The notes under the pieces: generated by a model | Told to the model about the DNA's origin: nothing | Seen by the model: only the letters and a program-made list of their open reading frames with translations | Databases searched by the model: none | Position numbers and translations under genes: made by a program | From: Abditibacterium sp. | GTDB taxonomy: Bacteria; Armatimonadota; Abditibacteriia; Abditibacteriales; Abditibacteriaceae | Reading direction: 5' to 3' | NCBI GenBank assembly: GCA_965199495.1 | Contig: CBDASK010000003.1 | Coordinates: 2,560,001 to 2,624,000, forward strand | Length of the DNA: 64,000 nt | Shown here: positions 109 to 64,000 of the stretch, one piece after another | Layout: every line of letters begins with the position of its first letter | How positions within the stretch are numbered: the stretch's first letter is position 1

Positions 109-2598
109 ATGAAAAATTCGTTTGCCCCGTTCCGTTCTGCATTGCCGCGCCGCCAATTTTTGCAATTGACGGCATTGGGCGCTTTTGCCGTTGCCGCAAC
201 TAACCCGAAACGCGCGCTGGCCAGCGCGTTAATTGGCGATTCCAAAAATTTGGGCGTGGCGCCCAATAAATTGTTGGCTGCCGAAAAATCATATCTCGTC
301 GCGCCCCGCGTAGCGACTAAAGTCCAGCCGTTTTCGCTCGCGCAGGTGCGCTTGTTGCCCGGCCCGTTTCTGCACGCGCAAAACCAAGATCACGCGTATT
401 TATTGTTCTTGGAACCCGACCGGTTTTTGCATAACTTCCACAAATTCGCCGGGTTTGAACCCAAAGCCGAAATTTATGGTGGCTGGGAAAGTCAGGGCGT
501 GGCTGGTCAGACGCTGGGACATTATCTGTCGGCGCTTTCGCAAATGTATCAGACGACGGGCGATGCGCGCCTTAAAAGCAAGCTCGATTATACGGTCGGC
601 CAGTTGGCGATGATTCAGGACAAGTGGGGCGATGGTTATGTTTCGGGCATTCCCGACGGACGCGCGATGTTCGCCGACATCAAGGCGGGCGATCCCAACG
701 GCGCCAAGCGCGGTTGGGTGCCGTGGTATACCATGCACAAACTGTTCGCCGGTTTGCGCGACGCCTATTTATTGACCGGCAACGAGCAAGCGAAAACGGT
801 TTTGATTAAGCTCAGCGATTGGGCGATTGATACTACGAAAAGCCTGAGCGACGCACAGTGGGAAACGATGTTGGAACAGGAACATGGCGGCATGAACGAA
901 ACGCTCGCCGACGTTTACGCGCTGACTGGCCAGCGCAAATATCTGGATTTGGCGCACCATTTTTCACATAAATTGATTTTGGAGCCGTTGACGCAACGCG
1001 AAGACCACTTGGACGGTTTTCATGCGAACACGCAAATTCCCAAAGTCATCGGTTTCGAGCGCATTTACGCGCTGGGTAACGAAAATGATTATGGCACGGC
1101 GGCGAAGTTTTTCTGGCAGACCGTAACGCAGAATCGCAGTTACGTCACGGGCGGCAACTCGGATCGAGAACATTTCTTTCCGCCCGCCGATACCGGCGCG
1201 CACTTGAGCGCCGAAACCGCCGAAACCTGCAACATTTACAATATGTTGAAATTGACGCGCGATTTGTGGAAAGTCGAGCCGACGGGCGCGCAGATGGATT
1301 GGTATGAGCGCGCGCTTTATAACCAGATTTTGGGGAGCCAAGACCCGATCGGCGGCGACAAAGGCGGCTTCAATTATCTCAATCCGCTTTCGACCGGCCA
1401 GTTCAAGGTCTATTCCAATCCGACGACGGCGTTCTGGTGTTGCGTGGGAACCGGCATCGAAAATCACGCGAAATACGGCGACACGATTTACTACCATGAC
1501 GCGGATTCGCTGTGGGTGAACTTGTTCATTCCCTCCGAGTTGACGTGGCCCGAAAAAAGTCTGGTTTTGACGCAACAGACGCGCTTTCCCGATGCCGACA
1601 CGTCCAACTTCACGCTCAAACTGGCGCGCCCGACGCAAATGGCGCTCAAGATTCGCCAGCCCGCGTGGGCGCAGAACATGACGATTTCGGTCAACGGCAA
1701 AGCGCAGTCAACAGCAGCCACCGGCAACGGCTACGCGACGATTGCGCGGCAATGGCGCGACGGCGATGTGGTCGAAGTGCATTTGCCGATGCAACTGCAT
1801 ACGGAACAATTGCACGCCACGCCGCAAAAACAGGCGATTCTCTACGGCCCGATTGTTCTGGCGGCCAATCTCGGCCCCAACGGTTTGGAAACCGATTACG
1901 TGGACAGCCAGACGCAGTATTCGGGCGCGGTTTTGCCTCCGGCGCTGGTATTTGTGACGTCGGGCACGGCGACCGCAAAAATTACGCGCGCCAATTCGGA
2001 CAATCTGGCGTTCACCGCGCAGATGCTCGATTCGGGCGATGGCACAGCTCGCATGGTGCCGATGCTGCCGTATTCGCGCGCGCATCATATGAGATATGGT
2101 GTTTATTTCGACGTTCTGACGCCCGCCGATTGGCAGCGCAAACGCGCTGAAATCGCCGCCGAAGCCGCGCGTCAGCGCGACATCGCCGCGCGCACCGTGG
2201 ATATTTATCGGCCCGGCGAACAGCAAAACGAAGTCGAACACGCGTTCAACGGTCGAAACTCGAATACAGGCAATTCGGGCGATTTCAAGTGGCGCGACGC
2301 CCGCGATGGCGGTTTCATCGAGTTCGCGCTGCAAGCTCCGCCCGCCGGTGTGGGCGGCGAATTGTCCATTAAATATTGGGGCAGCGACAACGGCGACCGC
2401 GACTTCGATATTTTGGTGAACGGCCAAAAAGTCGGCTCGCAGGTGCTCAACAACGACAAGCCGGGCGAATATTTCGACGTGATTTATCCGATTCCCGCAG
2501 AATTATTGGTGGGCAAAACGCGCGTGACGGTGCGCGTGGCTGCCAAACCGGGTAAAACGGCGGGCGGAATTTTTGGCGTGCGGATGTTGAAACGGTAG
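109..2598 (+). CDS. GH127-family glycoside hydrolase (beta-L-arabinofuranosidase-like), Tat-exported, with C-terminal accessory domain
   Basis: Tat motif PRRQFLQ; motifs YGGWE, GHYLSA, PWYTMHK, HANTQIPK, ETCNIYNMLKL, FWCCVGTG. Confidence 0.88.
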   Translation: MKNSFAPFRSALPRRQFLQLTALGAFAVAATNPKRALASALIGDSKNLGVAPNKLLAAEKSYLVAPRVATKVQPFSLAQVRLLPGPFLHAQNQDHAYLLFLEPDRFLHNFHKFAGFEPKAEIYGGWESQGVAGQTLGHYLSALSQMYQTTGDARLKSKLDYTVGQLAMIQDKWGDGYVSGIPDGRAMFADIKAGDPNGAKRGWVPWYTMHKLFAGLRDAYLLTGNEQAKTVLIKLSDWAIDTTKSLSDAQWETMLEQEHGGMNETLADVYALTGQRKYLDLAHHFSHKLILEPLTQREDHLDGFHANTQIPKVIGFERIYALGNENDYGTAAKFFWQTVTQNRSYVTGGNSDREHFFPPADTGAHLSAETAETCNIYNMLKLTRDLWKVEPTGAQMDWYERALYNQILGSQDPIGGDKGGFNYLNPLSTGQFKVYSNPTTAFWCCVGTGIENHAKYGDTIYYHDADSLWVNLFIPSELTWPEKSLVLTQQTRFPDADTSNFTLKLARPTQMALKIRQPAWAQNMTISVNGKAQSTAATGNGYATIARQWRDGDVVEVHLPMQLHTEQLHATPQKQAILYGPIVLAANLGPNGLETDYVDSQTQYSGAVLPPALVFVTSGTATAKITRANSDNLAFTAQMLDSGDGTARMVPMLPYSRAHHMRYGVYFDVLTPADWQRKRAEIAAEAARQRDIAARTVDIYRPGEQQNEVEHAFNGRNSNTGNSGDFKWRDARDGGFIEFALQAPPAGVGGELSIKYWGSDNGDRDFDILVNGQKVGSQVLNNDKPGEYFDVIYPIPAELLVGKTRVTVRVAAKPGKTAGGIFGVRMLKR

Positions 2599-2620
2599 AA
2601 TCTTGGGGTTTTGTTGGTTA

Positions 2621-2700
2621 CGAGAAGAGCGTCTGGTCTTTCCCTCACCCGGCTGAGTTACGCGAAGCCGGGTGAAGGAAAAACCAGACGCTCTTCTTCG
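2621..2700. repeat. Long imperfect intergenic hairpin, related to 21062-21106
   Basis: agaagagcgtctggtctttccctcacccggct ... agccgggtgaaggaaaaaccagacgctcttct. Confidence 0.8.
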
Positions 2701-2735
2701 ACAATCCCGCGCCAAATCTTACCCATCGCGTTAAA

Positions 2736-4517
2736 ATGGAATGCGTGTTCGATCCCTCCAAACCCCCGCAGACTTTAGCCGAAATGGCGCAGCGTTCGTT
2801 CGTTGATTATGCCGAGCGGCCTTATCTGGGCGTCAAAGAAAATGGCGCTTTTCAATTTCAGACTTATGCGCAAGTCGCCGCGCGCGTGAAAAACGTCGCG
2901 GGCGCGTTGCTGCAACTGGGTTTGGCGCGTGGCGACCGGGCGGCGATTCTGGCCGAAAATAGTCCGATGTGGGCGATTATGGATTTGGCGTGCCAAATGT
3001 GCGGAGTGATCTCCGTCCCGCTTTATTCGACCCTGCCCGCCAATCAAGTTCAGGTCATTTTGGCCGATAGCGGCGCCACTTTGATTTTGGTTTCGACCGA
3101 TAAACAGCGCGCCAAAGTGGATAAAGTGCGCGACGAGTTGCCGGATTTGAAATACGTTTGGAGTTACGAGGAATTCGGCGACATCGAAGCGCGCGGCGCG
3201 GCTTATTTCAAGGAACATCCCGAACTGTTCGAGTCAACGTGGCCCGCCGCCTATCCCAACGACGTGGCGACCATTATCTACACATCGGGCACGACCGGCA
3301 CGCCCAAAGGCGTGATGTTGACGCACAAAAATTTGGTCTCGAACGCCGTGGCGATTACCAAAATTACGCCGCATCTGGGCACGCAGGACAGATTTCTCTC
3401 GTTTTTGCCGCTCGCCCATATTTACGAGCGCACGGCGGGCCAATTTTTCCCGTTGCGTTTAGGCGCGAGCGTGGCCTATTGCGAAAGTTTGTTTACGGTT
3501 GATAAAGATATGCAACTCGCCCATCCGACGGTGATGGCGTGCGTGCCCAGACTTTACGAATCGTCGCGCGAAAAATTGTTTTCGGCGGCCAAAGCGTTGC
3601 CCGAAGGCAAGCGCAAAACTTATCTGGCGGCGCTCGAATTGGCGACGAAATTTGGTGCGCACAAAGGCAAAGTTCCCGGCGCGCCCGGTTTGTCGTTGAT
3701 CGAAAAGATCAAGTTTGTGATTTACGATAAGTTGGTTTACGGCAAAATTCGCGATAAGTTTGGCGGCAAGCTCAAGCATTTCATTTCGGGCGGCGCGCCG
3801 ATTGCGCCCGAACTGGGCGCGATTTTTATCGGTCTGGGGTTGGAAACTCTGGAAGGTTATGGACTGACCGAAACTTCGCCGGTTATCGCCGTCAATCGTC
3901 CGTTTGGGCCGCAACTTGGAACCGTGGGGCCACCGCTTCCGGGCGTCGAAGTGAAAATCGCCGAAGACGGCGAAATCGTGGTCAAGGCGCCGAGCGTAAT
4001 GAAGGGCTATTGGAACAAGCCCGACGAGACCAAAGAAGTTTTGACGCGCGACGGCTGGTTTCATACCGGCGACATTGGCGAATTAAACGACGGCGTTTTG
4101 AAGATTACCGACCGCAAGAAAGATTTGCTGGTGTTGGGCAACGGCAAAAAAGTCGCGCCGCAACCGATTGAGTTGCAGTTGCAGGAATCGAAATATATCG
4201 CGCAGGCGATTTTGCTGGGCGACAAAATGAAATCGGTCGCAGCGCTGATTGTGCCCAGTTTTCCGCAGTTGCGCGAGTGGGCCAAAGAACGTAATTTGAA
4301 TATCTCAAAAGACGCCGAACTGGCTGCGCACGCCGACGTGAATAAATTAATTCGCAGTGAAATTGACGCGCAAACCAAAGGTTTGGCTGACTTCGAGAAA
4401 GTGCGTAAATTCGCGTTGTTGCCCGAATTGTTGACAACGGAAAAAGGCGAACTCACGCCGACGCTGAAGGTGAAACGCAATGTGGTGGCGGAGAAATATG
4501 GTTCGTTGGTCGAGTAG
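2736..4517 (+). CDS. fadD: Long-chain fatty-acid--CoA ligase
   Basis: IIYTSGTTGTPKG, EGYGLTET, GWFHTGDIG, ELTPTLKVKR. Confidence 0.9.
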   Translation: MECVFDPSKPPQTLAEMAQRSFVDYAERPYLGVKENGAFQFQTYAQVAARVKNVAGALLQLGLARGDRAAILAENSPMWAIMDLACQMCGVISVPLYSTLPANQVQVILADSGATLILVSTDKQRAKVDKVRDELPDLKYVWSYEEFGDIEARGAAYFKEHPELFESTWPAAYPNDVATIIYTSGTTGTPKGVMLTHKNLVSNAVAITKITPHLGTQDRFLSFLPLAHIYERTAGQFFPLRLGASVAYCESLFTVDKDMQLAHPTVMACVPRLYESSREKLFSAAKALPEGKRKTYLAALELATKFGAHKGKVPGAPGLSLIEKIKFVIYDKLVYGKIRDKFGGKLKHFISGGAPIAPELGAIFIGLGLETLEGYGLTETSPVIAVNRPFGPQLGTVGPPLPGVEVKIAEDGEIVVKAPSVMKGYWNKPDETKEVLTRDGWFHTGDIGELNDGVLKITDRKKDLLVLGNGKKVAPQPIELQLQESKYIAQAILLGDKMKSVAALIVPSFPQLREWAKERNLNISKDAELAAHADVNKLIRSEIDAQTKGLADFEKVRKFALLPELLTTEKGELTPTLKVKRNVVAEKYGSLVE

Positions 4518-4533
4518 GGAATTTGTGCAACGT

Positions 4534-4658
4534 TTTTCTGCGGCCCGTAGGGTCAAAACTCGTTTTGACCGCGTCTCAAAATCTGGCATTTTCCGCGTTT
4601 ACAAAGCGAACATTGCTGCGCGGTCAAAACGAGTTTTGACCCTACGGGCCGCAGAAAA
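4534..4658. repeat. GTAG-type REP doublet (REPIN-like)
   Basis: Perfect 40-bp inverted arms at 4534-4573 and 4619-4658, each GTAG-GGTCAAAAC-TC-GTTTTGACC, between convergent genes. Confidence 0.85.
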
Positions 4659-4677
4659 GCAACAATGAAGAACTGGA

Positions 4678-7302: not shown

Positions 7303-7330
7303 TGGGCGAAATGCGTCAGACTTTGAAGGG

Positions 7331-8203
7331 ATGAAGTTTCCTTGTCTTTGCCTTCTGCTGTCTATCTGCGCTCTCGCCGCGACTTCGGCTCACGCCGCCA
7401 CACTCAAAGTTTCGCCGCAAAACCCGCAGCCCGGCGATATTCTCACCGTCACGGTTTATCCGGCGGCGGGCGAAACTATTGAAGGCGTCGGCATGGCGGC
7501 CTTCGACACCGATTTGGTCAAATTCTATGGCCACGATGGCGGCATGGTGCGCGGTTTCATCGGCTTTCCCTTCGACCGCACGGCGGGCAAATTCCCGTTG
7601 AACGCGCGCGTCATGGTTAACGGCAAAGAACAGATTCTCTCGACTTCGATTAACGCGCGCGCCCGCAATTATCCGACGCAACGTATCACGATGTCGAATA
7701 AAGGCACCGCCAGCAAAATGCACGCGACTGACGCTCTGCACGCCGAAAAACTTTACGTTCAATCCAAAATGAAAGACAGTTACGCCGCGCCTTTGTGGAG
7801 CGGCAATTGGATCATGCCCGTCAACGGCGCGACGAGTTCGGGTTATGGCCGCAAGCGTTACGTCAACGGCAAATGGTGGGGCCAGCATAACGGCTCGGAC
7901 ATCAAAGCGCCGACGGGCAAACCGATTCACGCGATGAATGCGGGCCGCGTGGTGATGAGCGATTATTTGCCCGCGCTACGCGGCAATTGCATCGTGATTG
8001 ACCACGGTTGCAACGTGTTTTCGGTTTATATGCACATGAGTAAGCGCGACGTGGCTGCGGGCGATACGATCAGCAAAGGCGAAGAAATCGGCGAAGTCGG
8101 CGCGACGGGTTTCGTGACCGGGCCGCATTTGCATTTCGAGGTGCGCATTGGTTGGGAGCCGGTTGATCCGATGAAAGTGATTGGCGGCGGGATAAAATTT
8201 TAA
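7331..8203 (+). CDS. M23 family metallopeptidase, secreted
   Basis: Signal peptide MKFPCLCLLL...AHA; HNGSD, YMHMS, TGPHLHFEV. Confidence 0.9.
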   Translation: MKFPCLCLLLSICALAATSAHAATLKVSPQNPQPGDILTVTVYPAAGETIEGVGMAAFDTDLVKFYGHDGGMVRGFIGFPFDRTAGKFPLNARVMVNGKEQILSTSINARARNYPTQRITMSNKGTASKMHATDALHAEKLYVQSKMKDSYAAPLWSGNWIMPVNGATSSGYGRKRYVNGKWWGQHNGSDIKAPTGKPIHAMNAGRVVMSDYLPALRGNCIVIDHGCNVFSVYMHMSKRDVAAGDTISKGEEIGEVGATGFVTGPHLHFEVRIGWEPVDPMKVIGGGIKF

Positions 8204-8352
8204 AATCGTTGCATTTGGCTTAATTCGTTCATATTGTTGCGCCTATGGCCGCATATTCACTTCAAACTTTGGGCGATGAACGGGTGGGTTTTCTTTTGCT
8301 GGCAGGAAGCGAATCGTTGAGAGCGGGCAACGCACAACGCGATTGCATTTTT

Positions 8353-8627: not shown

Positions 8628-9245
8628 ATGCCCCGACTTCTTCCGCGCACCAATCGCCGCCAACGCCTGATTATCGCGGGCGCGCTGTTGCTGGCGCCGC
8701 TCATTTATCTGGGCGCATTGGGCTATTATCTCGATAGCTGGGGCAAAGTTGACCGCGCCCAAAAAGCCGATGCGATCATGATTTTCGGGACGGGCGTCAA
8801 AGCCGACGGCTCGGCCTCGCTGACGTTGCGGGCGCGCACGCGTCACGCCTACGAATTGTGGAAACGCGGTCTGGCTCCGAAAATTCTCTGCACGGGCGGA
8901 ATGGGCACGCATCCGCCCGCCGAAAGCGTGGCGCAGGAAAAACTATTGGTCGGTTGGGGTGTGCCCGCCGATTCGATAATTAAAGAAGAAAAGTCCACTT
9001 CTACGTGGGAAAACGCCAAATTCGGCGCGCCGCTTTTGCCCGCGAATTCGAGCGTCATCGCGGTTTCCGATCCGTATCATTTGTGGCGCTGCCAACGCGA
9101 TTGCGCGGCGTTCGGTTTGAGCGCGACGACTTCACCAGCCACGGCGGCGTGGCTGCAATGGCCAGTGCGAACGCGATTGTTCTTTTGCGTGCGCGAGGCG
9201 GCGCTGGTGACGCGCGATTTAATTTATGGCGTCTTGGGAATTTGA
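8628..9245 (+). CDS. YdcF/ElyC/SanA (DUF218) family protein
   Basis: N-terminal TM; ADAIMIFG, LCTGG, EEKSTSTWENA, VSDPYHLWR. Confidence 0.88.
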   Translation: MPRLLPRTNRRQRLIIAGALLLAPLIYLGALGYYLDSWGKVDRAQKADAIMIFGTGVKADGSASLTLRARTRHAYELWKRGLAPKILCTGGMGTHPPAESVAQEKLLVGWGVPADSIIKEEKSTSTWENAKFGAPLLPANSSVIAVSDPYHLWRCQRDCAAFGLSATTSPATAAWLQWPVRTRLFFCVREAALVTRDLIYGVLGI

Positions 9246-14347: not shown

Positions 14348-14432
14348 GCCGGACGACGTGGCTGCTGTTTCAGGCAAAGCCGGATTCAACGAAACGCAAA
14401 CTCAGTCAGACTAAGCAACCAACCAAAATACC

Positions 14433-17124: not shown

Positions 17125-17182
17125 CGCGCTGCAGCCACGGCGACGGCGTTGTGTTTAAACTCTCGAACCGAAAACCCAAATT

Positions 17183-28520: not shown

Positions 28521-31406
28521 TTATCGCTCGAACGCCGCGTTAATCAGCATTTCCTGTTCCTTGCGATGGCTGGCCGCGCTGCCGGTGGCTGGGCTGGCGC
28601 TACGGGCGCGATAAACGCCGCTCCACTCGAATCGCTTGGTCAAAACGCGCCAAAAACTGGTGTCCATATGGAACCACGCGCCCATATTTTCCGGCTCTTC
28701 CTGCGCCCACACGATTTTGGTGCCGTCGGCGTATGGCGCTAAGGCGCCCATCAATTCGTCGTTGGAGAGCGGATACAACTCTTCGACGCGCAAGATAGCC
28801 ACGTCGTTGGCGCCGCGTTCTTCGCGGGCTTTGTCCAGCTCGTAATAGATTTTGCCGCAACACAGAATCACTTTCGAGATTTCTTTGCCGCTCCGTCCGT
28901 GCGAATCGGGAATGATTTTCTGCCAAGTGCCCGTCGCCAACTCGTCCAGACTCGAAATCACTTCGATGTGGCGCAGCAGACTTTTGGGTGACATTACAAT
29001 TAAGGGTTTGCGCCATTTGCGCAAGACCTGACGGCGCATCAGATGGAACATCTGCGCGGGCGTCGTCGGGTAAACGACCTGAAAATTGTCCTGAGCCGCC
29101 AACAGCAAAAACCGTTCGGGTCGCGCCGACGAATGTTCCGGCCCGGCGCCTTCGTAGCCGTGCGGTAAAAGCATCGTCAGGCCCGACAGATGATTCCATT
29201 TGTCCTCCGCCGACGCGATGAACTGGTCAACGATGACCTGTGCCGTGTTCCAGAAATCACCGAACTGCGCTTCCCAAATCACCAAACCGCCCAGCGCGTC
29301 GAGCGAATAACCGTATTCAAAACCCAAAACGCTGTTTTCCGATAAAGGCGAATTATAAATCCGTAAACGCGCCTGATCCGAAGCCAGATGATGAAGCGGC
29401 ACGTATTCTTCGCCATTGTTCACGTCGTGCAAAACCGCGTGACGATGCGAAAACGTGCCGCGCTCGCTGTCCTGTCCGCTCATGCGAATTGGCACGCCTT
29501 CGGTTGACAGAGTCGCGAAAGCCAAGGCTTCGCCCGCCGACCAATCGAGCGGCGCTTCGCCCTTGGCCATTTGTAGTCGCGCTTTCAGAAGGCGCTCAAT
29601 TTTCGGATGCGGCGTGAAATCTTCGGGGACGGTCGCCAACTGTTCCAGCAACATTTGCAGCCGTTCTTTGGGCACGCCGGTATTGACTTCGGGCGCGTTG
29701 GCGTCCACGCCGCCGATGTAGCCGCCGTGCGTTTTGCGCTCGCGCGTCGGCGCCTCTTCGTGCGCCTGCGAGAGTTCGTTTTCCAAATGCGTGCGGCGGC
29801 GTTCGGCGATGGCGTCGGCCTCTTCGCGCGTGATTTCGCCCATGCCCAATAATCTGTCCAAATAACCTTCGCGCACCGATTGGCGCTTGGAAATCGCCGC
29901 GTAAGTCAACGGTTGCGTGAACGCCGGTTCGTCGCTTTCGTTGTGACCCAGCTTGCGATACGAATACATATCGATCACGGCGTCGCGGCGAAATTTGCGG
30001 CGAAATTCCATCGCGATTTTCACCGTCGCGGCGACGGCTTCGGGGTCTTCGCCGTTGACATGGAAAATCGGGATTTGCAGCATTTTCGCGATGTCGGTGC
30101 AATAATGGCTCGACCGCGCCTCTTTCTGCTCGGTCGTAAAACCGATTTGGTTATTGATCACGACGTGAAGCGCGCCGCCAACCGTGTAGCCGGGCAACTG
30201 GCTCAGATTCAGCGTTTCCTGCACCACGCCTTCGCCGATAAACGCGGCGTCGCCATGAATCAGAATCAGCAAACCGCGTTCGCGCGCGTAATCGTCAATG
30301 CGATCTTCCTTGGCGCGCAAGCGCCCCATCGCGACCGGATTGACGAACTCCAGATGCGACGGGTTGAAACAGAGCGACAAATGAACTTTGCGCCCGGTCG
30401 AAGTCTGATAATCGTTGACGTAACCCAGATGGTATTTCACGTCGCCGCCGCCCAGATGCAAATCCGGGTCTTTGTCCTCGAACTCGCGGAAAATCTCGCG
30501 CGGACTTTTACCGATAATGTTCGCCAACACGTTCAAGCGCCCGCGATGCGCCATGCCGACGACGACTTCCTGAATGCCCTGTTCGCCCGCCGCTTCGATG
30601 GCCAAATCCAAAGTCGGCAGCAGACTTTCCGAGCCTTCGAGCGAGAACGATTTAGCACCGGTGAATTTCCGGCGAATGAACTCCTCGAAAATGACGGCAT
30701 CGCTTAAACGCGTCAAGATGCGAATCTGTTCGGGCCGCGACAATTGCGCACGGTTTTGCGTGGACTCCATGCGCTGTTGCAGCCAGTTGCGCGCTTCGAT
30801 GTCGTCAATGTGGGTGAACTGCACGCCGACGGTGCGCGAATAAGTGTTTTTCAGCCGTTGAATCAGTTCGCGAAGCGGCAACTGTCCAGAATTTTCGAGC
30901 GAGCGGTCGCAGGCGAAAACCCGATCCATGTCGGATTCGCGAAAGCCGTAAAATATCGGTTCGAGTTCGGGAATGACCGGCACTTCCTGAAAACCCAATG
31001 GATCCAAATCGGCGATGAGATGGCCGCGCACGCGATAGTTGCGCACCAGTTGCGTTACCGCTTCTTGACGTTCTTTGGCGGCGGCGGCCAAAGCCGCTTG
31101 CCCGTCGCTGTTAATCGGCGCGACGGGATTGCCGCCGGGATTGAAAATCGAGGTCGTCTCGAATGTCGGGCCGAGTTGCGTCGAACCGTTGGAGCCCGGC
31201 CCGGTCACGTTGTCGAGCGACTCGAAATAACGCCGCCAATCGGGTGGCACGCTGTTGGGGTTGCGTTCGTAATCGGCGTAGATACCCTCGATAAAACCGA
31301 GGTTGGAATTGTTGGGCAGAGTGACTGTGGTAACAGCCACGGCGTCGGCGTGGCTGCTGTCGGCGCCGTTGAGTTCGGCGGAAAGAGTGGAAGTTGTGGA
31401 ATCCAT
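28521..31406 (-). CDS. sucA: 2-oxoglutarate dehydrogenase E1
   Basis: FSLEG, GMAHRGRLN, GDVKYHLG, HGDAAF, WEAQFGDF, GPEHSSAR. Confidence 0.97.
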   Translation of the reverse strand: MDSTTSTLSAELNGADSSHADAVAVTTVTLPNNSNLGFIEGIYADYERNPNSVPPDWRRYFESLDNVTGPGSNGSTQLGPTFETTSIFNPGGNPVAPINSDGQAALAAAAKERQEAVTQLVRNYRVRGHLIADLDPLGFQEVPVIPELEPIFYGFRESDMDRVFACDRSLENSGQLPLRELIQRLKNTYSRTVGVQFTHIDDIEARNWLQQRMESTQNRAQLSRPEQIRILTRLSDAVIFEEFIRRKFTGAKSFSLEGSESLLPTLDLAIEAAGEQGIQEVVVGMAHRGRLNVLANIIGKSPREIFREFEDKDPDLHLGGGDVKYHLGYVNDYQTSTGRKVHLSLCFNPSHLEFVNPVAMGRLRAKEDRIDDYARERGLLILIHGDAAFIGEGVVQETLNLSQLPGYTVGGALHVVINNQIGFTTEQKEARSSHYCTDIAKMLQIPIFHVNGEDPEAVAATVKIAMEFRRKFRRDAVIDMYSYRKLGHNESDEPAFTQPLTYAAISKRQSVREGYLDRLLGMGEITREEADAIAERRRTHLENELSQAHEEAPTRERKTHGGYIGGVDANAPEVNTGVPKERLQMLLEQLATVPEDFTPHPKIERLLKARLQMAKGEAPLDWSAGEALAFATLSTEGVPIRMSGQDSERGTFSHRHAVLHDVNNGEEYVPLHHLASDQARLRIYNSPLSENSVLGFEYGYSLDALGGLVIWEAQFGDFWNTAQVIVDQFIASAEDKWNHLSGLTMLLPHGYEGAGPEHSSARPERFLLLAAQDNFQVVYPTTPAQMFHLMRRQVLRKWRKPLIVMSPKSLLRHIEVISSLDELATGTWQKIIPDSHGRSGKEISKVILCCGKIYYELDKAREERGANDVAILRVEELYPLSNDELMGALAPYADGTKIVWAQEEPENMGAWFHMDTSFWRVLTKRFEWSGVYRARSASPATGSAASHRKEQEMLINAAFER

Positions 31407-46491: not shown

Positions 46492-47274
46492 CTATGATTT
46501 GTTGACCTTCTCCGTCCAGGCATTCAAATTCGCCATAAGAGCAGCGTAATTGCCGCGATTAGACGCGAGGCCGGGCACGTCATTGACCTCTTCAATATTC
46601 CACATATTGACAGGTGTGCCCGTTGCAGAAGGTTTTAGCGCCTTGACGTGGCCATCGGAAAAAAGAAAGTTACACGTCTGCAAATGGCCTGGGAAGGCAA
46701 AAAACTGAGTGAAGGTGGCGGGGTCATAGTTAAGGCCCATCTCGGAGAATCTGTAAATGCTTTCGCAGACCAATACCGTTTGAGCCGTATCGCCGATGGC
46801 AGCCAACGAGGAACTTCTTCCATACTCCGTGGGCGCACTGCCCCCGATATTGTAATCGGTGCCGTTGATGGCGTAAGAGCTTTTAAATCGCGGCGAGCCT
46901 GTGGGCAGAACGGCCATTTTCGCGTTGCTGCTGTCATCGGCATATCCATCCTGTTCGTAGGGAGTTGTGTTCGAGGGACAACTATAAAGTTGCGAACTCT
47001 TAACGTAGGGGTAAGTCGTGCGGCGCCACGTCATAGCGGCCCCAATATCGTCAGCGGTGTTATAGCGACGCAAAGGCATTTTCTCGTCGTAATCCTGCGT
47101 GTATTGCATTACTCCTAAACCAATCTGCTTGAGATTGCTCTGGCACGACGAACGACGGGCGTTTTCGCGGGCACGCGCAAAAACGGGAAACAGAATCGCT
47201 GCAAGAATGGCGATGATGGCAATCACAACGAGAAGCTCGATTAACGTGAAGGCTTGAAACTTATGATTTTTCAT
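46492..47274 (-). CDS. Prepilin-type N-terminal methylation / DUF1559 / H-X9-DG protein
   Basis: [49 protein letters not shown]. Confidence 0.93.
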
Positions 47275-47467
47275 GATGAATCCGAATTCGGCGGGAGACA
47301 TATATTAAATAGAGGTACCCGCGAACTCCTAATTCATTATAAAGTCTCTGGCCCAAGGATGTGTTACCTCTATATTACGTGGAAGTAAAGGTTTTTATTT
47401 TGAAGAAAATAAAAGAAATAAAATAGTTTGTGTCAATTTAAACTCAGAAAAATAAGAGTTGGATAAT

Positions 47468-48244
47468 TCAGTCTGCTATATCCGTGCGACACCACAATTC
47501 CAGATGTGCGCTCGCGTCGCCGCGAAACGAGCCGACGTGCGGCGCTAAATCGTAGAAATCGCGACCTACACCGATGGCGACGCAACCGGGCGAAGGCGCG
47601 CGGCCATGCGTTGGGTCGAAGGCGTGCCATTGTCTGTCAGCCAGAACTTCGGCCCACGCGTGCAGTTGGCCCTCGGCGGGATTGTAACCGGCGACGTAGC
47701 GCGCGGCCAAACCGCTTGAGCGACAGAGCGAAAGGAAGATATGCGCGAAATCGGCGCACGAACCGACGCGACGCAGCCACGCCGTGGCTGCATTGGGCGG
47801 ACGAGCGTCGGCGCGCGCGCGATAAATCAATTCGTCGTGGCAAAACGCGCAAAAATAAGCCGCGCGTTCGAGCGGCGCCAGAGTGCGTTGCGCGCGCCCC
47901 AGCGTTTGCAGTTCGGCGCCAAAACCCACGGCGCGCGAGGGCAATTTGAATTGGCCCAACCGTTCGTCTTCGCGCCACGCAAGCGGAAGTTGCGCGGTTT
48001 GCGTTTCCAGATTTAGCTCGAATTCAAACGCGCGCTCGATACTTTGATGGCGCAATATCAAACGGCGATTGCCCCATTCGTCGAAATTTTCGACGGCGCT
48101 TTCGGCGCGCGGCGAGACTTGCCAGTTTTCGCTGACTACGGATTGTCCGGCGCGCGCCAGCGGCAAGACGCGCAGCATCCGCCGCGCCTCGCGAACGGGC
48201 GCGTCGTAAGTCACGCGAAGGCGGAGTTGGGTGCGCGAAAGCAT
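47468..48244 (-). CDS. Bacterial transglutaminase-like protein
   Basis: GSCADFAH, ARYVAGY, HAWAEV, FDPT, GRDFYD. Confidence 0.9.
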   Translation of the reverse strand: MLSRTQLRLRVTYDAPVREARRMLRVLPLARAGQSVVSENWQVSPRAESAVENFDEWGNRRLILRHQSIERAFEFELNLETQTAQLPLAWREDERLGQFKLPSRAVGFGAELQTLGRAQRTLAPLERAAYFCAFCHDELIYRARADARPPNAATAWLRRVGSCADFAHIFLSLCRSSGLAARYVAGYNPAEGQLHAWAEVLADRQWHAFDPTHGRAPSPGCVAIGVGRDFYDLAPHVGSFRGDASAHLELWCRTDIAD

Positions 48245-49823: not shown

Positions 49824-49987
49824 CGCGTGCCAGTTTACGCGGGATAGGCCAAACGCCAACGTTTTTACGGTCGGTTGAAGTTATAGAAGCCCGGACAACA
49901 GCCACGGCGACCGTGTTCCAACGCGACCAAAACGGCGGCGCTAATTTTCGCCTCGAAACCCAGTTGGCGACGACTTACGTCGGTTGA

Positions 49988-55461: not shown

Positions 55462-55463
55462 TT

Positions 55464-57253: not shown

Positions 57254-57272
57254 ATATTTGCGGCGCTAAAAC

Positions 57273-57314
57273 CGAAAAAGCGGTTCCTTTTTGAATAAAG
57301 GAGCCGCTTTTTCG
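57273..57314. terminator. Bidirectional terminator
   Basis: cgaaaaagcggttccttt...aaaggagccgctttttcg. Confidence 0.75.
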
Positions 57315-57327
57315 TCACGCCAAAAAT

Positions 57328-59613
57328 TTACCGACCTTTGACGGTCAGCGTGATCGGGTCGCTGGTGGCGTTGGCGCCGTCGGTTTGCGTGGCCGAAATC
57401 ACGTAGCGCAAATTCGAGACGTTTTTGCGTTGGGGCAATTGGATTTGATTGGTCTGCCAGTTGCCGTTCTGGTCAACGCGCACCTGCTGCGTGCCCAAAT
57501 CTTCGTTGTATTCGAGGATGAACAATTGCGTTCCGGTCGCCACAATGGAGACGTTCACGGTCGCGCCGGGCGCGCCTTTGCCGCTCACGACGAGTGGGCT
57601 GTTCACGCTGGCGCCGTTGGTTGGCGAATTCACGGTTAAATTAACGGGCGCAGCCAAAATCTGCACGGGCGCCGTGGCTGGTGTCGTGGTTGAAGTGCCA
57701 TCGCCGGGCGAGAAACGACCGACAAAACGCAGGTTGCCCGACGCGTTATCCGGCACGCTGTAATTGGCGCGATAAGTTCCGGGCGTATTGCGATCTTCGG
57801 TCATCGGCAAATTGGTCGAAATCGCGCGGTTGTTGTCGTCAATTACATCGAAGCTGGCCTGTCCCGCCGGGTTGGCTTGCAAAATCAGCGGCACGGTTTC
57901 GCCGGTATTCATCGCGCGCGTCGCGCCCTGCTCGAACGATTGAATGCCGCCAGCCACGCCGTTCGCCACGTTGAACCCAAAGTTCGCCGTCGTCGAGTTG
58001 CCCGCTTTGTCCGAAATCACCGCGCGCACGCTGACTTGGCCTGATAAATCCTGCGGCACGACAGCATTAATCGAAGTCGGCGGCGCCACGGTCGCCTGAA
58101 CCGGCAAGCGCAGGTTACCGTTGACGATTTCCATCGTCGCGCCACCCAAGCCCGAACCGTTCAAATCGTCGGCGAAAACCACGATGTTGGGCTTGCTCAC
58201 GCTGACGGTCGAATTGTTGGCCGGGAAGGTGCCAAAAATGCGCGGCGCCACGGTGTCAATTGTCACCGGCTCGCCGCTAAGCGCGGTCGCTTCAATGCCG
58301 TTGGCCGCCGTCAGGCGCGCCAGAATGCGCGCTTCCAAAACGTCGTCGCCGTTTTTTACCGTATAAGAACCATTATAAACGCCCGGTTGCGTGGTGGATT
58401 CGTAGAGCGGCACGTTCTGGATTTTTGCGCCCAGCGAAAACGCCAGACGCTGGCCGGTTGTCGCGCGCACCGTTACGTCGAGGCGACTGCCCGCCTTGAG
58501 CGGGCCGTTGGCGTTGTGCTGCACCAACTGAATTTGCGGCGCGTTATTGTTGGGAATTCCGCCGCCCGGAATTGGATCGGGATTGCCCGTGTTGCCGCCG
58601 CCATTGATTGTGTAATCGGGCGCATAGGCCGAAACGCGATAGACCTGACGATTCTCGCGCGACAAAAACAGCGCGACGCTATCGCCCTGCTTCAGGTTGG
58701 CGGTCGAGGCGGTTTTGCCCTGCGGATCAACGTAGCTCAAGTTGTTGCCCAGAGTTAAAGTTGTGTCGTTGTTATCGTCCAAAACGATGGTATTGCCCGC
58801 CGCGAACTGCACTTTGGCCACCACAACCGTCGCGGCGGTGATGACCTGCGTGACGCGTCCGGTCGCGTCCAAGTTCAGGCGCACATCGTCGCCGTTGTCG
58901 AGGCTGCTCAGAGCCACGCCGCGCGCCGGTTGGCGTAGCGGCGTCGCGCCCGGCGTGCTGGCGATGGACAATTGCGACAATCCGACCGCGCCCGGCGCGA
59001 GCGGGAAAATCCGCGTTTGCCCATCGGCGTTAATGGTGATGGTGTTGCCCGCCGTGTTGATGTTGGTCAACGTGCCGCTAAGGCTGGTGCCGCCCGGCAC
59101 CACATACGTTGGGCCAGTCGGCGTGGTTTGGCCGCCGCCTGTGCCGCCCGCCGTGGCTGGTGAGGTGATGGCGACGCTTTGGGTCGTCGCGTTGAAAACC
59201 ACGTTGGCGCCGAATGCCTCGCCGACGAAACGAAGCGGCACGAGCGTGCGCCCGAAAACGGCTTGCGCTGGCACATCCAAGGTGCTGCGCTGACCATTGA
59301 TAATCGCTTGATCGGAGCCGATATTCAGTTCGAGATTAGTCGTACCGCGCACGGCTTTGATGGTGCCGTTGGAATAGCTCACCGTCGCGCCCAACGCCTC
59401 GAAAATGGCGCGCAACGGCACCAGCAAGCGACCGCCCGCGTTGACGGGCGGTTGGTCGGGGAAAACGAGCGGGCGATTGTCAACTGTCACGCTCACCGAT
59501 GAAGGCGTGAGCGCCTGCGCGCGCGCGGGCGTCGTGGCTATAAAAGGCGCGGCGGCGAGCGGAACGAGGGCTAAAGTGGCGGCGAGTCGCGCGATATTAG
59601 TGGATTTTTTCAT
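57328..59613 (-). CDS. Secreted copper-amine-oxidase N-terminal (stalk) domain protein with Ig-like repeats
   Basis: GRLLVPLRAIFEALGA, GRTLVPLRFVGEAFGA; DTVAP and DKAGN Ig motifs. Confidence 0.85.
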   Translation of the reverse strand: MKKSTNIARLAATLALVPLAAAPFIATTPARAQALTPSSVSVTVDNRPLVFPDQPPVNAGGRLLVPLRAIFEALGATVSYSNGTIKAVRGTTNLELNIGSDQAIINGQRSTLDVPAQAVFGRTLVPLRFVGEAFGANVVFNATTQSVAITSPATAGGTGGGQTTPTGPTYVVPGGTSLSGTLTNINTAGNTITINADGQTRIFPLAPGAVGLSQLSIASTPGATPLRQPARGVALSSLDNGDDVRLNLDATGRVTQVITAATVVVAKVQFAAGNTIVLDDNNDTTLTLGNNLSYVDPQGKTASTANLKQGDSVALFLSRENRQVYRVSAYAPDYTINGGGNTGNPDPIPGGGIPNNNAPQIQLVQHNANGPLKAGSRLDVTVRATTGQRLAFSLGAKIQNVPLYESTTQPGVYNGSYTVKNGDDVLEARILARLTAANGIEATALSGEPVTIDTVAPRIFGTFPANNSTVSVSKPNIVVFADDLNGSGLGGATMEIVNGNLRLPVQATVAPPTSINAVVPQDLSGQVSVRAVISDKAGNSTTANFGFNVANGVAGGIQSFEQGATRAMNTGETVPLILQANPAGQASFDVIDDNNRAISTNLPMTEDRNTPGTYRANYSVPDNASGNLRFVGRFSPGDGTSTTTPATAPVQILAAPVNLTVNSPTNGASVNSPLVVSGKGAPGATVNVSIVATGTQLFILEYNEDLGTQQVRVDQNGNWQTNQIQLPQRKNVSNLRYVISATQTDGANATSDPITLTVKGR

Positions 59614-59721
59614 GATTTTTAAAGAGTCAAAGAGTTCTTCTCAGAAGTCAAGGGCGCTTAAATCTGCAAAACGAGCGCCACGAATTTGTAATGTTTATGC
59701 GAATGAGCAGAATATTGATGA

Positions 59722-59840
59722 GGGCTTGCGCGGCAAGCCCCTACGAAATCCGCGAAATTCGTCTGAGACGGTTGGGCCGCTTCTGCAACAGGCGGCAAGC
59801 TACAACCCCGCGAAAATCGTAGGGGCTTGCCGCGCAAGCC
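59722..59840. repeat. GTAG-type REP pair
   Basis: gggcttgcgcggcaagcccctac (59722-59744) and gtaggggcttgccgcgcaagcc (59819-59840). Confidence 0.8.
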
Positions 59841-59900
59841 ATTGGACACGCCACAAGGCCACGAAACAATCGCGCGCCAGAACTGGCAAACTAAAAGGGT

Positions 59901-61109
59901 ATGCAACGAGTTCGGGTGGGCATCATCGGGGCGAGCGCGGCGGTCGAGTGGGCGATTTTGCCCGTTTTGAGCGGGCCGGATGCGCTCTCGCCGCCCGATA
60001 GCGGCGCGTGGTGGCAACGGCGCCCGTCTCCGGCGGGCGATATTCGCTATCAGGCGCCCGCGACGCCCGAAGTCGTCGCGCTGTGTGATGCGCCGCCCGA
60101 ATCCGAGTGGGGCAAATCCAGCAAAGTTTCGCCGCGCTTGCAACAGATGGCGCGCGCTGCCCGCGTCGGCGCGGTTTATGCCGATCCGTTGGCTTTGCTG
60201 CGCGAAGTTCCGCTCGACGCGCTTTTATTATGCGAGGAAGATGCCTTCTCGCCCGCCGCCGTGGCTGCTCTGGCCGCGAGTGCGCCCGGAGTCAAAAACG
60301 GCGTGAGCGCGCCGCGCTGGTTATGGATCGAAGGCCCGCCCGCGCGTTCCAGTTTGGAATTAAATGCGTGGGCGCGCGCCGTCGCCGGGCGCAAACCGGC
60401 GTTGTGGATGGCCGCGCCCCTGCGCCGCGCCGCCGCCCATCGCGCCGCGCGTCGCCTCATCGAACGCGACGGCATCGGCGAAGTCACCGCGATTGGAGCG
60501 CGCTTGCCGTTCGCGCTCGATGGCGCGCGCTTTGGCGCCGCCTACGCCGCGTTCGAGATGCTGCTTTCGCTGCTGATTCCCACGCAAATGCCGCTCGACG
60601 TGACGGCGATTCGCCATCCCGATGGCGCCGCTAATGCCTTAGTTCGGTTCGCGGGCGGGGCCTCGATAAGCGCGCTGTTTGGCGCCGCCGACGCGTGGAA
60701 TGCGCCCCTGCCGCGCGTCGAAGTTTGCGGCACGCAGGGCCGCAGTCTGGTCTGCGAAAGCGGGCGCCGCTTGCTGCATTACGTGCCGCGCGAGGGCGCG
60801 CGCGTCTGGGAGCCGCCCGGTTTGGCCGCGCACGTTTCGGCGCCCGGCATCGCCGGATACGCCGAAGATTTGAAAGCGTTTTTGAGCGTCTGCACCGACA
60901 ACCCCGCGCCGTGGAGCGCCGAGCGCGCCCTCGATGACGCCGCGCGCGCTCTCAGCGTTTTGGAAGCGACGCTCCATTCGCTCGAAAGCGGCGCCACAAT
61001 TCCTATCGAAGCGCGCGGCATCACTTTGAATGTCGCGCCGCCCGATGCAGCCACGCCGGACGAATCGAGCGAAGCACCGCGCAATTTGACGCTCGATTTG
61101 GGCGAGTGA
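59901..61109 (+). CDS. Divergent Gfo/Idh/MocA-like protein
   Basis: VRVGIIGA, VVALCD, IEGP in place of EKP, VEVCGTQG. Confidence 0.65.
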   Translation: MQRVRVGIIGASAAVEWAILPVLSGPDALSPPDSGAWWQRRPSPAGDIRYQAPATPEVVALCDAPPESEWGKSSKVSPRLQQMARAARVGAVYADPLALLREVPLDALLLCEEDAFSPAAVAALAASAPGVKNGVSAPRWLWIEGPPARSSLELNAWARAVAGRKPALWMAAPLRRAAAHRAARRLIERDGIGEVTAIGARLPFALDGARFGAAYAAFEMLLSLLIPTQMPLDVTAIRHPDGAANALVRFAGGASISALFGAADAWNAPLPRVEVCGTQGRSLVCESGRRLLHYVPREGARVWEPPGLAAHVSAPGIAGYAEDLKAFLSVCTDNPAPWSAERALDDAARALSVLEATLHSLESGATIPIEARGITLNVAPPDAATPDESSEAPRNLTLDLGE

Positions 61110-61115
61110 AGTTCG

Positions 61116-63173
61116 CTAAATCTCTTCGATTTCCCACTCGTCATCGTCAACGCCGTGAAATTTGAGCAGTTTGCGGCAGTGACCTAATTTTGTTTCTGTA
61201 TCAGAATGGGTGTCCAAAAACCAGCCATTAGATAAATTTTTTGGGGACTGTGAATTCGGCTGATTGGAAACGAGATGCGGAAATTGTTGGCTCAAAACGT
61301 TGAAATCGGCGCCGTCTCCAACTAAAAATTCGCCGACGGCGCGCATGACATCCGACCAGTATTTCGTCGGCGTGCGAACGCCCTGAATCGTCACAGCGAG
61401 CGGCGAAGTTTTCTTGTTGGTTGGCGTTGGGTTGGGCATCACATCGCCAAAACTCGGCCACACTTCGATGATTTTTTCGATGAGCCAATTCGCGCGGCCT
61501 TGAATGGCGCGCGCGTTCCACTGTTCGATGTTGGGAGCGAAATACTCGCTATTAAGTTTGAGACCATGCGCGCGCAGTTTGACACGTTTTTCGGGGAACG
61601 AATCGTTTGATAAGCTGGAATTGTAACTCGAAGTGACCAGCGTCAAATTGCCCAGCGTATGTAACCATTCGTCGCTAACGCGCTGGGCTTCGGCACCCAG
61701 ATGCCCGCGCCACCAATCTGACAACGTTTGCGGCAAAATATGCTCGATGGTCGGCGCACTCCCCAGCATCGGGATGACATCGGTGCCTTCGTAGAGCGCG
61801 GTGTTGATGCGCTCGAAAATCATGATCGTCTTTTCTTTGACGCCAGCTTTGCCGTAAAAATCGTGGCGCGGCGCGACTTGATGAATTTTATCATCGCTGG
61901 GATAGTTCTTGCGGCCCAAAACCGCTGGAAGTGAAGCGGATAAATTAGCGAAATCAACGCTTTGACCGAGCGCGGCAAACATTTTGTTGAGATAAGAAGT
62001 CGGCTCGCCGCAGACAAAACGGCGCACCAAGTAATTCTCAACCGTTTTCAAGGCGCCCACATACTCACCAAGCGAAATTTCCTTGCGCGCATGGTAATCG
62101 GCCAGCATCAACAAAAACGGGTAAGAAACCGTGATGTCAAGCGCGTTGAGCCGCTCTAACCCCGCGCGCAAAGCGGCATCAGTGCCTTTGTCGGGGCGCA
62201 TAAGCCCCTCGTAAAGCGCCGCGAATCGCTTGAGTTCGCGTAGTTTTTCGATAAATTCGTCGCTCGAACACGTCTTCATCTCGTCGCGAAACCGCGCGTA
62301 AATTTTATTGTGCGGCGGTAGCGCGCCGAATTGCATGGCGTCGTAATGACGCAAAAACGAAGTCAACTCGCCCATACCAGAGCGGCCCAGAGTGCGCTCG
62401 TCATCCAAAAGGTCTTCGATGGGCGCCCAAATCTCCGAGAAAACTCTTTCCTGTGCCGCACTTGGCAAACGCATCGCGATATAGTTGCGCACCAGATCAA
62501 CTTCGCTCAATCGCTGACCTTTGGTGTTGAGCGATTCAAAAATTTGATGCGCGTCTTCGTCTTTGTCGAGTTCGACCCACACGATTTGGAACGCCGCCGT
62601 CAAAACCTCGAAAAACGGCTCGGCCTCAATGCGTTTCGACGATAGAGCATTTTGCAACTGGCCTTGGAAAAACTCGAAGGCGGGTAGGGCGTGGCTCTTG
62701 CCGATGGGAACTGGCTTACCTTCGGTAATCGCGCAATAAATCGCGCGGTCGTTATTCTTAGTGGTCGGTAAAATTTTCCACTTCAGATCACCTTTTGCGT
62801 AAGAGTTGGTAATCAAAGCGCGCGCCTGATTTTTCAAATCTTCGTCGTCATTGGTCGCTTCGGCAAACGCGCACAGCAGCAGCGAAAGCGTTGTCAATCT
62901 TTGTTGGCCATCAACCAAACGGTGAACTGGAATCGTGCCGTTGCTCACGCCCTGTGGCACAATAACAAGCGCGCCCAAAAAGTGTTCGGGCGAACTCTTT
63001 CGTTCGCCATTTCGGCTGGCAATCAGAGCATCATAAGTCGTGATGGCATCGTCCCACAAAGTTTGCCAGTGATGTTTTTCCCATCGGTATTCGCGTTGAA
63101 AATGGGGCAACACAAAGTGCATATGCCCTATATTTCCAAACGCCTCCGCGATAGTTTTTGAAGAGGCTTGCAT
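61116..63173 (-). CDS. GmrSD-like DUF262-DUF1524 restriction nuclease with extra C-terminal domain
   Basis: PHFQREYRW, VDGQQRLTT, IFESLNTKG, IEHILPQ, LGNLTL, N..LSN. Confidence 0.9.
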   Translation of the reverse strand: MQASSKTIAEAFGNIGHMHFVLPHFQREYRWEKHHWQTLWDDAITTYDALIASRNGERKSSPEHFLGALVIVPQGVSNGTIPVHRLVDGQQRLTTLSLLLCAFAEATNDDEDLKNQARALITNSYAKGDLKWKILPTTKNNDRAIYCAITEGKPVPIGKSHALPAFEFFQGQLQNALSSKRIEAEPFFEVLTAAFQIVWVELDKDEDAHQIFESLNTKGQRLSEVDLVRNYIAMRLPSAAQERVFSEIWAPIEDLLDDERTLGRSGMGELTSFLRHYDAMQFGALPPHNKIYARFRDEMKTCSSDEFIEKLRELKRFAALYEGLMRPDKGTDAALRAGLERLNALDITVSYPFLLMLADYHARKEISLGEYVGALKTVENYLVRRFVCGEPTSYLNKMFAALGQSVDFANLSASLPAVLGRKNYPSDDKIHQVAPRHDFYGKAGVKEKTIMIFERINTALYEGTDVIPMLGSAPTIEHILPQTLSDWWRGHLGAEAQRVSDEWLHTLGNLTLVTSSYNSSLSNDSFPEKRVKLRAHGLKLNSEYFAPNIEQWNARAIQGRANWLIEKIIEVWPSFGDVMPNPTPTNKKTSPLAVTIQGVRTPTKYWSDVMRAVGEFLVGDGADFNVLSQQFPHLVSNQPNSQSPKNLSNGWFLDTHSDTETKLGHCRKLLKFHGVDDDEWEIEEI

Positions 63174-63276
63174 AAGATTAACAAAACTAATTTTAGTTGA
63201 ACGACGATTTACCAACAACGAGATTTTATACTCTTTCAAAATAAAGTCGCTGAATTCTCCCCCACATAATCCGTTT

Positions 63277-64000
63277 ATGCTCACTTCTCCATCCGAATCT
63301 GTGCCCAATTTTACGCTCGACCCGCAGGGAATGCGCGGGACAGCAACCGCGCGACATTTGCGAAAGTTGCGACAGCGCAAGCAATGGCAAAGCGCCCTCG
63401 TCGTCGCGCTACTCATCATCGGCGTGGCTGCTCTGGGTTGGTGGGCGTTGCAGCCGCGCGCGGGCGGGTTCGATGTGCAAAACGCGCAAACTTTACCGCT
63501 CGATTTGAGCGCGCCCGCGTCGCTCGACGATAAGGGCAATTTGTGGCTGGGGAGTCGGAGCGGAGCGTTGTGGGAAATAGATGCTAATGGCCAAAGCCAA
63601 CGTGTGGGCGCGACTTCGCTGGCGGGCGCGCCGCCCCTCGTCAGCGCGGGCGGCAGCGTTTATGTCCCCGGTTTGGATGGCACTTTGACGGCGCTCGGCG
63701 CCGCGAACAAAACGTTATGGACGCGCGGCTTGGGCGCCGCGCTTTCGACAACTCCGGCACTGTTTCACGACAAAAACTCGGCGATTTTGGCCGTTGGCGA
63801 TGGCGACGGCAACGTCGCGGGATTGGATGCGAGCAACGGCAAAACGCGATGGAATACGAAATTGGATGGCTCCATCGGTGACGCAATTGTGGTGGCGCGC
63901 GAAGATTTTATCGTGCCGACGTTGGCGAGCGGCGTCTGGCGCGGCGGTCTGGTGGGCTTGGACGCGCGCACCGGGCGCATCCGGTGGCATTTTACTGGTG
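63277..64000 (+). CDS. Membrane-anchored PQQ-like beta-propeller protein, truncated by the window end
   Basis: Read by hand: TM helix then DGTLTAL, GLDASNGKTRW, GLDARTGRIRW; no stop codon. Confidence 0.8.
   Translation, partial: MLTSPSESVPNFTLDPQGMRGTATARHLRKLRQRKQWQSALVVALLIIGVAALGWWALQPRAGGFDVQNAQTLPLDLSAPASLDDKGNLWLGSRSGALWEIDANGQSQRVGATSLAGAPPLVSAGGSVYVPGLDGTLTALGAANKTLWTRGLGAALSTTPALFHDKNSAILAVGDGDGNVAGLDASNGKTRWNTKLDGSIGDAIVVAREDFIVPTLASGVWRGGLVGLDARTGRIRWHFTG

Follow-up and report, generated by a model that had tools for sequence, protein, structure and literature searches.

A dispersed, non-palindromic octamer of an Abditibacterium genome resembles DNA uptake sequences and is spaced by strand

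The stretch of DNA analysed here (the window) comprises 64,000 nt of Abditibacterium sp. (GCA_965199495.1, contig CBDASK010000003.1, positions 2,560,001–2,624,000, forward strand) and sits on the 4.72 Mb main contig of its source genome, referred to below as G000. It is strewn with the octamer CGTGGCTG, which an earlier note on this DNA had counted by hand and had read as an uptake-sequence-like or protein-binding signal. Our recount is identical to that count, with exactly 51 copies, 32 on the plus and 19 on the minus strand, and all quoted coordinates are confirmed. The estimate that only about 3 copies should be expected is also borne out by 100 dinucleotide shuffles of the window (mean 2.48, maximum 7 copies), while the GC content, judged by eye at about 57%, is 55.8% when measured. 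The extended 5' flank CG[C/G/A] is present on 35 of the 51 copies, and the three copies that had been placed between genes do lie outside all gene calls, which for G000 were made within this analysis. The features of the window are as follows.

498..63430, both strands: dispersed CGTGGCTG copies (n = 51, exact match), a subset of the 3,091 copies genome-wide
9136..9155: close inverted CGTGGCTG pair, 12 bp offset, within a called gene
31334..31356: close inverted CGTGGCTG pair, 15 bp offset, within the 5' end of sucA
47774..47790: close inverted CGTGGCTG pair, 9 bp offset, within a called gene
14357..14364, plus strand: intergenic CGTGGCTG, upstream of sucD
17132..17139, minus strand: intergenic CGTGGCTG
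49899..49906, minus strand: intergenic CGTGGCTG, upstream of gltX
46492..47301, minus strand: prepilin-type gene, among 20 such genes that a pattern search recovers genome-wide; listed as context, not as a demonstrated reader of CGTGGCTG

Genome-wide, the density of CGTGGCTG is 0.65 per kb. This corresponds to a 14-, 19-, 12-, 13- and 7-fold excess over Markov models of orders 0 to 4 respectively, and CGTGGCTG is the top 8-mer under both the order-2 and the order-4 model. Called genes contain 2,837 copies compared with 245–296 in 10 synonymous-codon shuffles, and this approximately 10-fold excess rules out an origin as a codon artefact. The earlier argument that a codon pair is insufficient to explain the word holds as well, as enrichment (3- to 25-fold) is seen in every one of the six frames, although two of them (VAA-type and AAT-type) contain 72% of the genic copies. 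In short intergenic gaps there are 160 copies where 8–10 are expected, a 16- to 20-fold excess. One-mismatch variants, which had been described as many, are over-represented mainly at the edge positions 1 and 8 (up to 3.6-fold); this does not extend to the interior, where all variants at positions 2, 5 and 7 fall under expectation (0.2–0.84). The extended motif is CG[C/G/A]-CGTGGCTG-C, tolerant at its edges and depleted of interior variants, and CGTGGCTG is a DNA-level signal of about 11–12 bp with an 8-bp core.

The copies arise through base substitutions at positions that permit them, to the same extent on either strand. In comparisons with motif-free kin, restricted to sites inside ungapped alignment blocks, CGTGGCTG sites match ordinary codons of the relatives, and amino-acid identity at these sites is 0.69 compared with 0.80 overall. 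Peptides encoded by CGTGGCTG exceed their reversals (VAA 1,832 versus AAV 861; AAT 1,427 versus TAA 774), the excess being about twofold for VAA, AAT and DVA and just 1.1- to 1.6-fold for QPR, AWL and SHA. The available part of PMC2817400 applies this test to the DNA uptake sequences (DUS) of Neisseriaceae and the uptake signal sequences (USS) of Pasteurellaceae.

Along the chromosome the density is even (3.3–8.4 per 10 kb in 100-kb bins), with no zoning at origin or terminus. The longest gaps are often GC-poor. The five 10-kb bins of less than 50% GC average 1.4 copies compared with about 6.9, and the two small contigs carry 2 and 6 copies (0.09 per kb). DNA that looks foreign has few copies of CGTGGCTG. 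Six 6-bp palindromes that contain CG (CGGCCG, CGATCG, GCCGGC, CCGCGG, TTCGAA and CTCGAG) are nearly absent from G000; both small contigs avoid the same six, and many relatives also avoid several of them. A ribosomal RNA region (G000 C3:1860000-1867000) carries five copies of CGTGGCTG, including two opposite-strand pairs about 70–90 bp apart.

Chi, which acts with RecBCD or AddAB, and the FtsK orienting polar sequences (KOPS) are also non-palindromic, over-represented octamers with orientation-dependent action, Chi being biased to the leading strand and KOPS nearly fully polar towards the terminus. With the origin placed at dnaA, CGTGGCTG differs from both in that it lacks replichore polarity (1,584 leading and 1,499 lagging copies, 51.4% leading). 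A separate word, GGGCAGGG, which we take to be KOPS, is strongly polar in the same test (201 versus 24). RecBCD, AddAB and AdnAB were not found in G000, which has a single UvrD_C match and gives no tblastn hit with four congener AddB orthologs, and with the absent replichore bias this rules out an identity with Chi or KOPS. AddAB-type genes are present in most Abditibacterium congeners and were not found in the clade of G000, G004 and G011 or across most of the remaining genera in the family.

The spacing of CGTGGCTG depends on the relative orientation of neighbouring copies. It is more even than random, with variance-to-mean ratios of 0.75–0.79 at 1–5 kb compared with 0.96–1.11 for three control words. 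Over the distances examined (up to 8 kb), same-strand pairs are found at 0.10–0.17 of expectation below 100 bp, 0.42 at 400–600 bp and 0.93 at 1.2–1.6 kb, whereas opposite-strand pairs beyond 40 bp are mostly near expectation (the lowest bins are 0.3, on 3 pairs, and 0.64) and show a 3.6- to 5.8-fold excess at 8–20 bp. With close inverted pairs removed, there are 162 same-strand pairs at 40–600 bp against 497.6 expected (0.33) and 516 opposite-strand pairs against 506.8 expected (1.02; p=8e-43), and none of the 120 control 8-mers tested, of 562 eligible, lies under 0.89. Each strand bears its own evenly spaced set of copies, with a reach of about 1 kb. The exclusion persists between variants with just 7 bp in common and involves intergenic copies too; by transcription context it is 0.15 for antisense-antisense pairs, 0.33 for sense-sense pairs and 0.34 across oppositely oriented genes. 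Because it is symmetric and is seen in sense, antisense, cross-gene and intergenic pairs, it operates at the DNA level, and an RNA-level signal is ruled out, as antisense copies also exclude one another.

USS and DUS served as positive controls, in DNA around inverted USS pairs (52 of 79 loci kept, overlapping, short and low-density loci being dropped) and around inverted DUS pairs (33 merged stretches, on contigs taken as Neisseriaceae from their DUS density); all of these loci are selected around an inverted pair, and related species among them are not independent. At the USS loci there are 75 same-strand pairs against 112.3 expected (0.67) and 112 opposite-strand pairs against 106.9 (1.05; p=0.0014), and one of 100 control words gave a lower ratio. 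At the DUS loci the figures are 61 against 90.6 (0.67) and 120 against 92.6 (1.30; p=1e-5), with none of 100 control words as low; part of the opposite-strand excess comes from 40–100 bp, and the 200–400 bp bin shows no difference. Both systems thus show a same-strand-biased exclusion at 40–600 bp, weaker than that of CGTGGCTG (0.67 versus 0.33). Same-orientation pairs within 10 nt are reported as rare in the available part of PMC1852404, and in the portions of the USS and DUS literature consulted we found no description of exclusion over hundreds of bases.

Among 401 genomes of the phylum, just G000, G004 and G011 have CGTGGCTG in thousands of copies, about ten times control, and in a quick SucA tree of 24 family genomes these three group together as a single clade (support 100). 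CGTGGCTG is a real, clade-specific, genome-wide DNA signal. G004 keeps the core and has different flanks even within genes, so that flanks differ between sister species in a dialect-like manner. Other iterated words near one per kb are found in 7 of 26 family relatives, each sampled at 6–400 kb, with the calls for G018, G024 and G042 resting on 6–10 kb and negative calls on 10–110 kb. These are the palindrome TCGAGTACTCGA in G020, G024 and G042, GAGTACTC in G022, AAGTACTT in G014 and G018 (with flanks that differ between the two) and GTACGGTCGA in G017, and gapped-word scans of 12 motif-negative samples found no iterated word. The palindromic words are centred on AGTACT, which has 4,150 copies in the whole genome of G020, 3,241 in G014 and 4,733 in G022, is iterated in no other of 121 genomes and is nearly absent (1–19 copies) in four other family members, with 19 copies in G000. 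The palindromic words of G020, G014 and G022 exclude one another up to about 400–600 bp. The half-sites of G017 and G020 are a two-base indel apart, and inverted GTACGGTCGA pairs in G017 are terminator-like, as with DUS and USS (14 pairs in 24 convergent gaps versus 1 in 30 divergent gaps).

In G004, 45 of the 48 close inverted pairs form long hairpins between genes, without bias to convergent gaps; there are about 45 of them per 400 kb, each with two extended CGTGGCTG copies, mostly 32–34 bp apart. They are GTAG-footed and resemble the repetitive extragenic palindromes (REP) and bacterial interspersed mosaic elements (BIME), the arm agreeing with a REP of G007, also GTAG-footed, in 17 of 26 aligned columns, and they may be a by-product of the dispersed word or its source. 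A long family of tandem repeats in the same G004 sample is probably a CRISPR array. REP and their associated tyrosine transposases (RAYT) form systems of extragenic inserted hairpins clustered round the RAYT gene, whereas CGTGGCTG in G000 is single, genic and not inserted, with no RAYT tied to it. A separate REP family starting GTAGAGAC has about 290 copies on G000 C3 and flanks a Y1 (RAYT-like) transposase gene in G004, while clusters of CGTGGCTG were absent from the flanks of all 21 Y1-transposase loci examined. One RAYT gene of G004 had seemed to be so flanked, but its downstream copy proved to be an ordinary one within a gene.

The comEC, comEA, pilC and dprA matches of G000 are intact and free of internal stops, and the relatives of its ComEA (43–52% identity) are assigned to Abditibacterium sp. 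and A. utsteinense, on which basis G000 probably belongs to that genus. Among the 20 prepilin-type genes recovered by pattern search, that of the window has the N-terminus usual for such proteins in this phylum. Pilins were rejected as candidate readers. The sole strongly basic prepilin (net charge +15) has matches in 6 of 27 genomes and none in motif-positive G004, and the pilins encoded in the type IV pilus cluster are neutral or acidic proteins that also occur in motif-free G009 and G023. The parts of ComEC show no unusual divergence. Protein-motif patterns at first missed MutL and RecA, and a pattern miss is therefore not evidence of absence. At the end of the pilus cluster (G000 C3:872871-880963) two similar genes, each encoding about 1,300 aa, lie in tandem.

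No methyltransferase was found that is present in all three motif genomes and absent from motif-free congeners (PF01555, PF00145 and PF07669; type III not searched), in searches covering five genomes each for two of the three families, with G011 only 87% complete. An N4/N6 methyltransferase gene lies directly downstream of mutS in G000 (C3:2188266-2192266) and is syntenic in G011; it matches at just 47% in G004 and at 49% in motif-free G006. MutL is present in all five genomes tested. A large restriction-modification gene of the Eco57I family (G000 C3:1750576-1753998) is interrupted by a stop codon, and its G004 ortholog is a single open frame of 1,127 aa.

DUS and USS are described as occurring about once per kb in equal numbers on the two strands, at even spacing and with dialects that differ between clades; they arise by substitution, bias the peptides encoded at their sites and are rare in acquired DNA (PMC2817400, PMC12616744, PMC2397512, PMC1626085), with further background in PMC7811141. 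CGTGGCTG shares all of these properties: it is short and non-palindromic, near one per kb in equal orientations and evenly spaced, arises by substitution, skews peptides, is scarce in acquired-looking DNA and has clade dialects. The three also have in common the same-strand-only exclusion, measured here for all of them, and G000 has intact ComEC, ComEA, PilC and DprA, although motif-free kin have competence genes too. It differs from DUS and USS in its unrelated sequence and phylum and in a stronger and longer exclusion, and no reader like ComP or ComN was found for it. The likeness is drawn from genomic evidence. Another point of comparison is HIP1, the highly iterated palindrome of cyanobacteria, a hyper-abundant octamer within and between genes, which published papers describe as spread by substitution, patchy with alternates, and linked to transformation (PMC13756078, PMC5861425, PMC4390886). 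CGTGGCTG is likewise a hyper-abundant octamer in and between genes, arises by substitution and is patchy with alternates in relatives, and the palindromic words of G020, G022 and G014 fit HIP1 and the alternate highly iterated palindromes. However, CGTGGCTG is not palindromic, no cognate methyltransferase was found in the searches described above, and the HIP1 core CGATCG is strongly avoided in G000.

We considered an unlikely alternative, a HIP1-like mark, in which a methyltransferase would mark one strand of an asymmetric site and so direct either transformation that depends on methylation or the repair of mismatches; each parental strand would need marks within about 1 kb, and the palindromes of kin would mark both strands. 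This would account for both the strand-only exclusion and the palindromic relatives; AGTACT is iterated in 3 of 121 genomes and nearly absent in four kin, such near-absence being common for restriction-modification targets; MutL is present throughout the genomes tested; an N4/N6 methyltransferase gene follows mutS in G000 and G011; and HIP1 has been tied to methyltransferases (PMC13756078, PMC4390886, in the parts available). Set against this, no clade-exclusive enzyme appears in the three Pfam families, the mutS-linked one matches motif-free G006 no worse than G004, the consensus, at 11–18 bp and with graded flanks, is longer than one expects of a methyltransferase site, the small contigs avoid the same palindromes as the host without sharing CGTGGCTG, and USS and DUS show strand asymmetry as well. 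Somewhat less probable still is a Chi-like polar signal that would stop or load a resection or repair enzyme distinct from RecBCD and AddAB, a signal of which both orientations would be needed because breaks are random and not at replication forks. A polar site of which the first correctly oriented copy alone counts would yield the observed exclusion, and an AddB-type gene turned up in 9 of the 10 motif-free congeners whereas all 10 motif-bearing genomes gave no such hit, such that CGTGGCTG may belong to a substitute pathway. But there is no replichore bias, G000 has no second UvrD_C protein of RecB, AddA or AdnA type and no AddB tblastn hit, six motif-free genomes of other genera also lack an AddB-type hit and the kin are not independent, and no candidate enzyme was identified.

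We give little credence to the idea that CGTGGCTG is bound by an abundant protein associated with the nucleoid, with condensin loading or with transcription. The uniform chromosomal density and the excess of inverted pairs at 8–20 bp, which a dimer might favour, are consistent with it, and HIP1 has been suggested to have a structural function (PMC5861425), but a double-strand binder would not make only same-strand neighbours redundant, and neither the independence of the exclusion from transcription nor the lack of zoning at origin or terminus fits. There is only a slight chance that CGTGGCTG is a remnant or target of a mobile hairpin system of REP/RAYT type, to which the G004 hairpins and their alignment with the G007 REP would point; for G000 this is largely refuted by copies that are single, genic and in ungapped alignments, by Y1-transposase loci of which one is flanked by GTAGAGAC and none by CGTGGCTG clusters, and by the fact that mobile repeats do not exclude one another by strand. 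An artefact of codon pairs or composition, or the loss of close direct repeats by slippage, is refuted and retains virtually no probability: the concentration in two frames is the sole point in its favour, and it is contradicted by the excess over synonymous shuffles in all six frames, by the intergenic copies, by iteration in only 3 of 401 genomes, and by an exclusion that operates between variants sharing just 7 bp and is absent from 120 control 8-mers.

Because CGTGGCTG agrees in its anatomy with uptake sequences on most of the points that could be tested, and because G000 has intact competence genes, we propose that CGTGGCTG is probably a lineage-specific 'self' tag that works like DUS and USS, is favoured by the transformation pathway and is read with polarity. 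In this model, a component of the type IV pilus/ComEA/ComEC/DprA pathway would favour DNA bearing CGTGGCTG, and copy-creating alleles would consequently spread, through biased uptake and recombination or through selection for self-DNA repair templates, until a same-orientation copy falls within one recombination tract. As just same-orientation copies are redundant, the word would probably be read with polarity or on the imported single strand, and the palindromic words of relatives would tag both strands with one element. As no reader was found, 'uptake-like' is supported as a working class and not as a proven function. Neither of the outcomes that the earlier note had named as refuting is observed: the enrichment holds over codon-preserving shuffles, and replichore polarity is absent. 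As such a class the reading of the earlier note appears sound, to which the spacing signature common to USS and DUS can now be added; membership of the DUS/USS systems themselves is unproven.

Several observations weigh against a self tag. No reader was found, and the pilus cluster does not differ between genomes with and without the motif (four further 10-kb clusters from relatives were compared). ComEC (27/27), ComEA (25/27) and PilC (27/27) are found across the family genomes, and so competence genes do not track CGTGGCTG. The enrichment is about 13-fold, compared with 200- to 1,000-fold for the longer DUS/USS cores (PMC2817400, available part). DUS and USS favour non-coding DNA and terminator pairs, whereas CGTGGCTG in G000 is 92% genic (0.32 per kb intergenic versus 0.72 genic), and of its 86 close inverted pairs 17 are intergenic and 69 lie inside genes, which rules out a terminator role there. 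DUS are reported as highly conserved in the part of PMC2397512 available, whereas single CGTGGCTG sites turn over fast: 41 of 172 are common to G004, not above the 25.5% background for any 8-mer, although where both proteins permit the word silently it is kept at 41 of 77 sites compared with 58 of 185 controls, and G011 shares 12 of 18 sites against a background of 41%. Replication of the exclusion is weak in small samples, though in the same direction (G004, p=0.05–0.12; G017, p=0.07–0.5), and the palindromic words of kin appear to resemble HIP1 more. Finally, USS orientation is without effect in the uptake assays described in part of PMC1939737, such that uptake alone does not explain the asymmetry and a strand-specific step would follow binding.

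Among the papers listed we found none on CGTGGCTG as an iterated word or on armatimonad uptake sequences, in a search that covered few subscription journals. The strand-specific spacing rule needs just a genome sequence and can be used to screen any iterated word, and for the established models it predicts that a same-orientation tag pair would be redundant for transformation and an opposite pair would not. Adding CGTGGCTG could also render hard-to-handle bacteria transformable. More tentatively, and with somewhat less than even confidence, we suggest that the Abditibacteriaceae may have evolved sequence-specific uptake independently of Neisseriaceae and Pasteurellaceae, patchily and with palindromic and non-palindromic words in one family that would bridge DUS/USS and HIP1, and that the same-strand exclusion may reflect a transformation step where tag orientation decides which strand is imported or recombined. 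The family would then add a third lineage, unrelated to the other two, whose sister clades with and without the motif would make the origin of uptake-sequence systems testable by comparative genomics.

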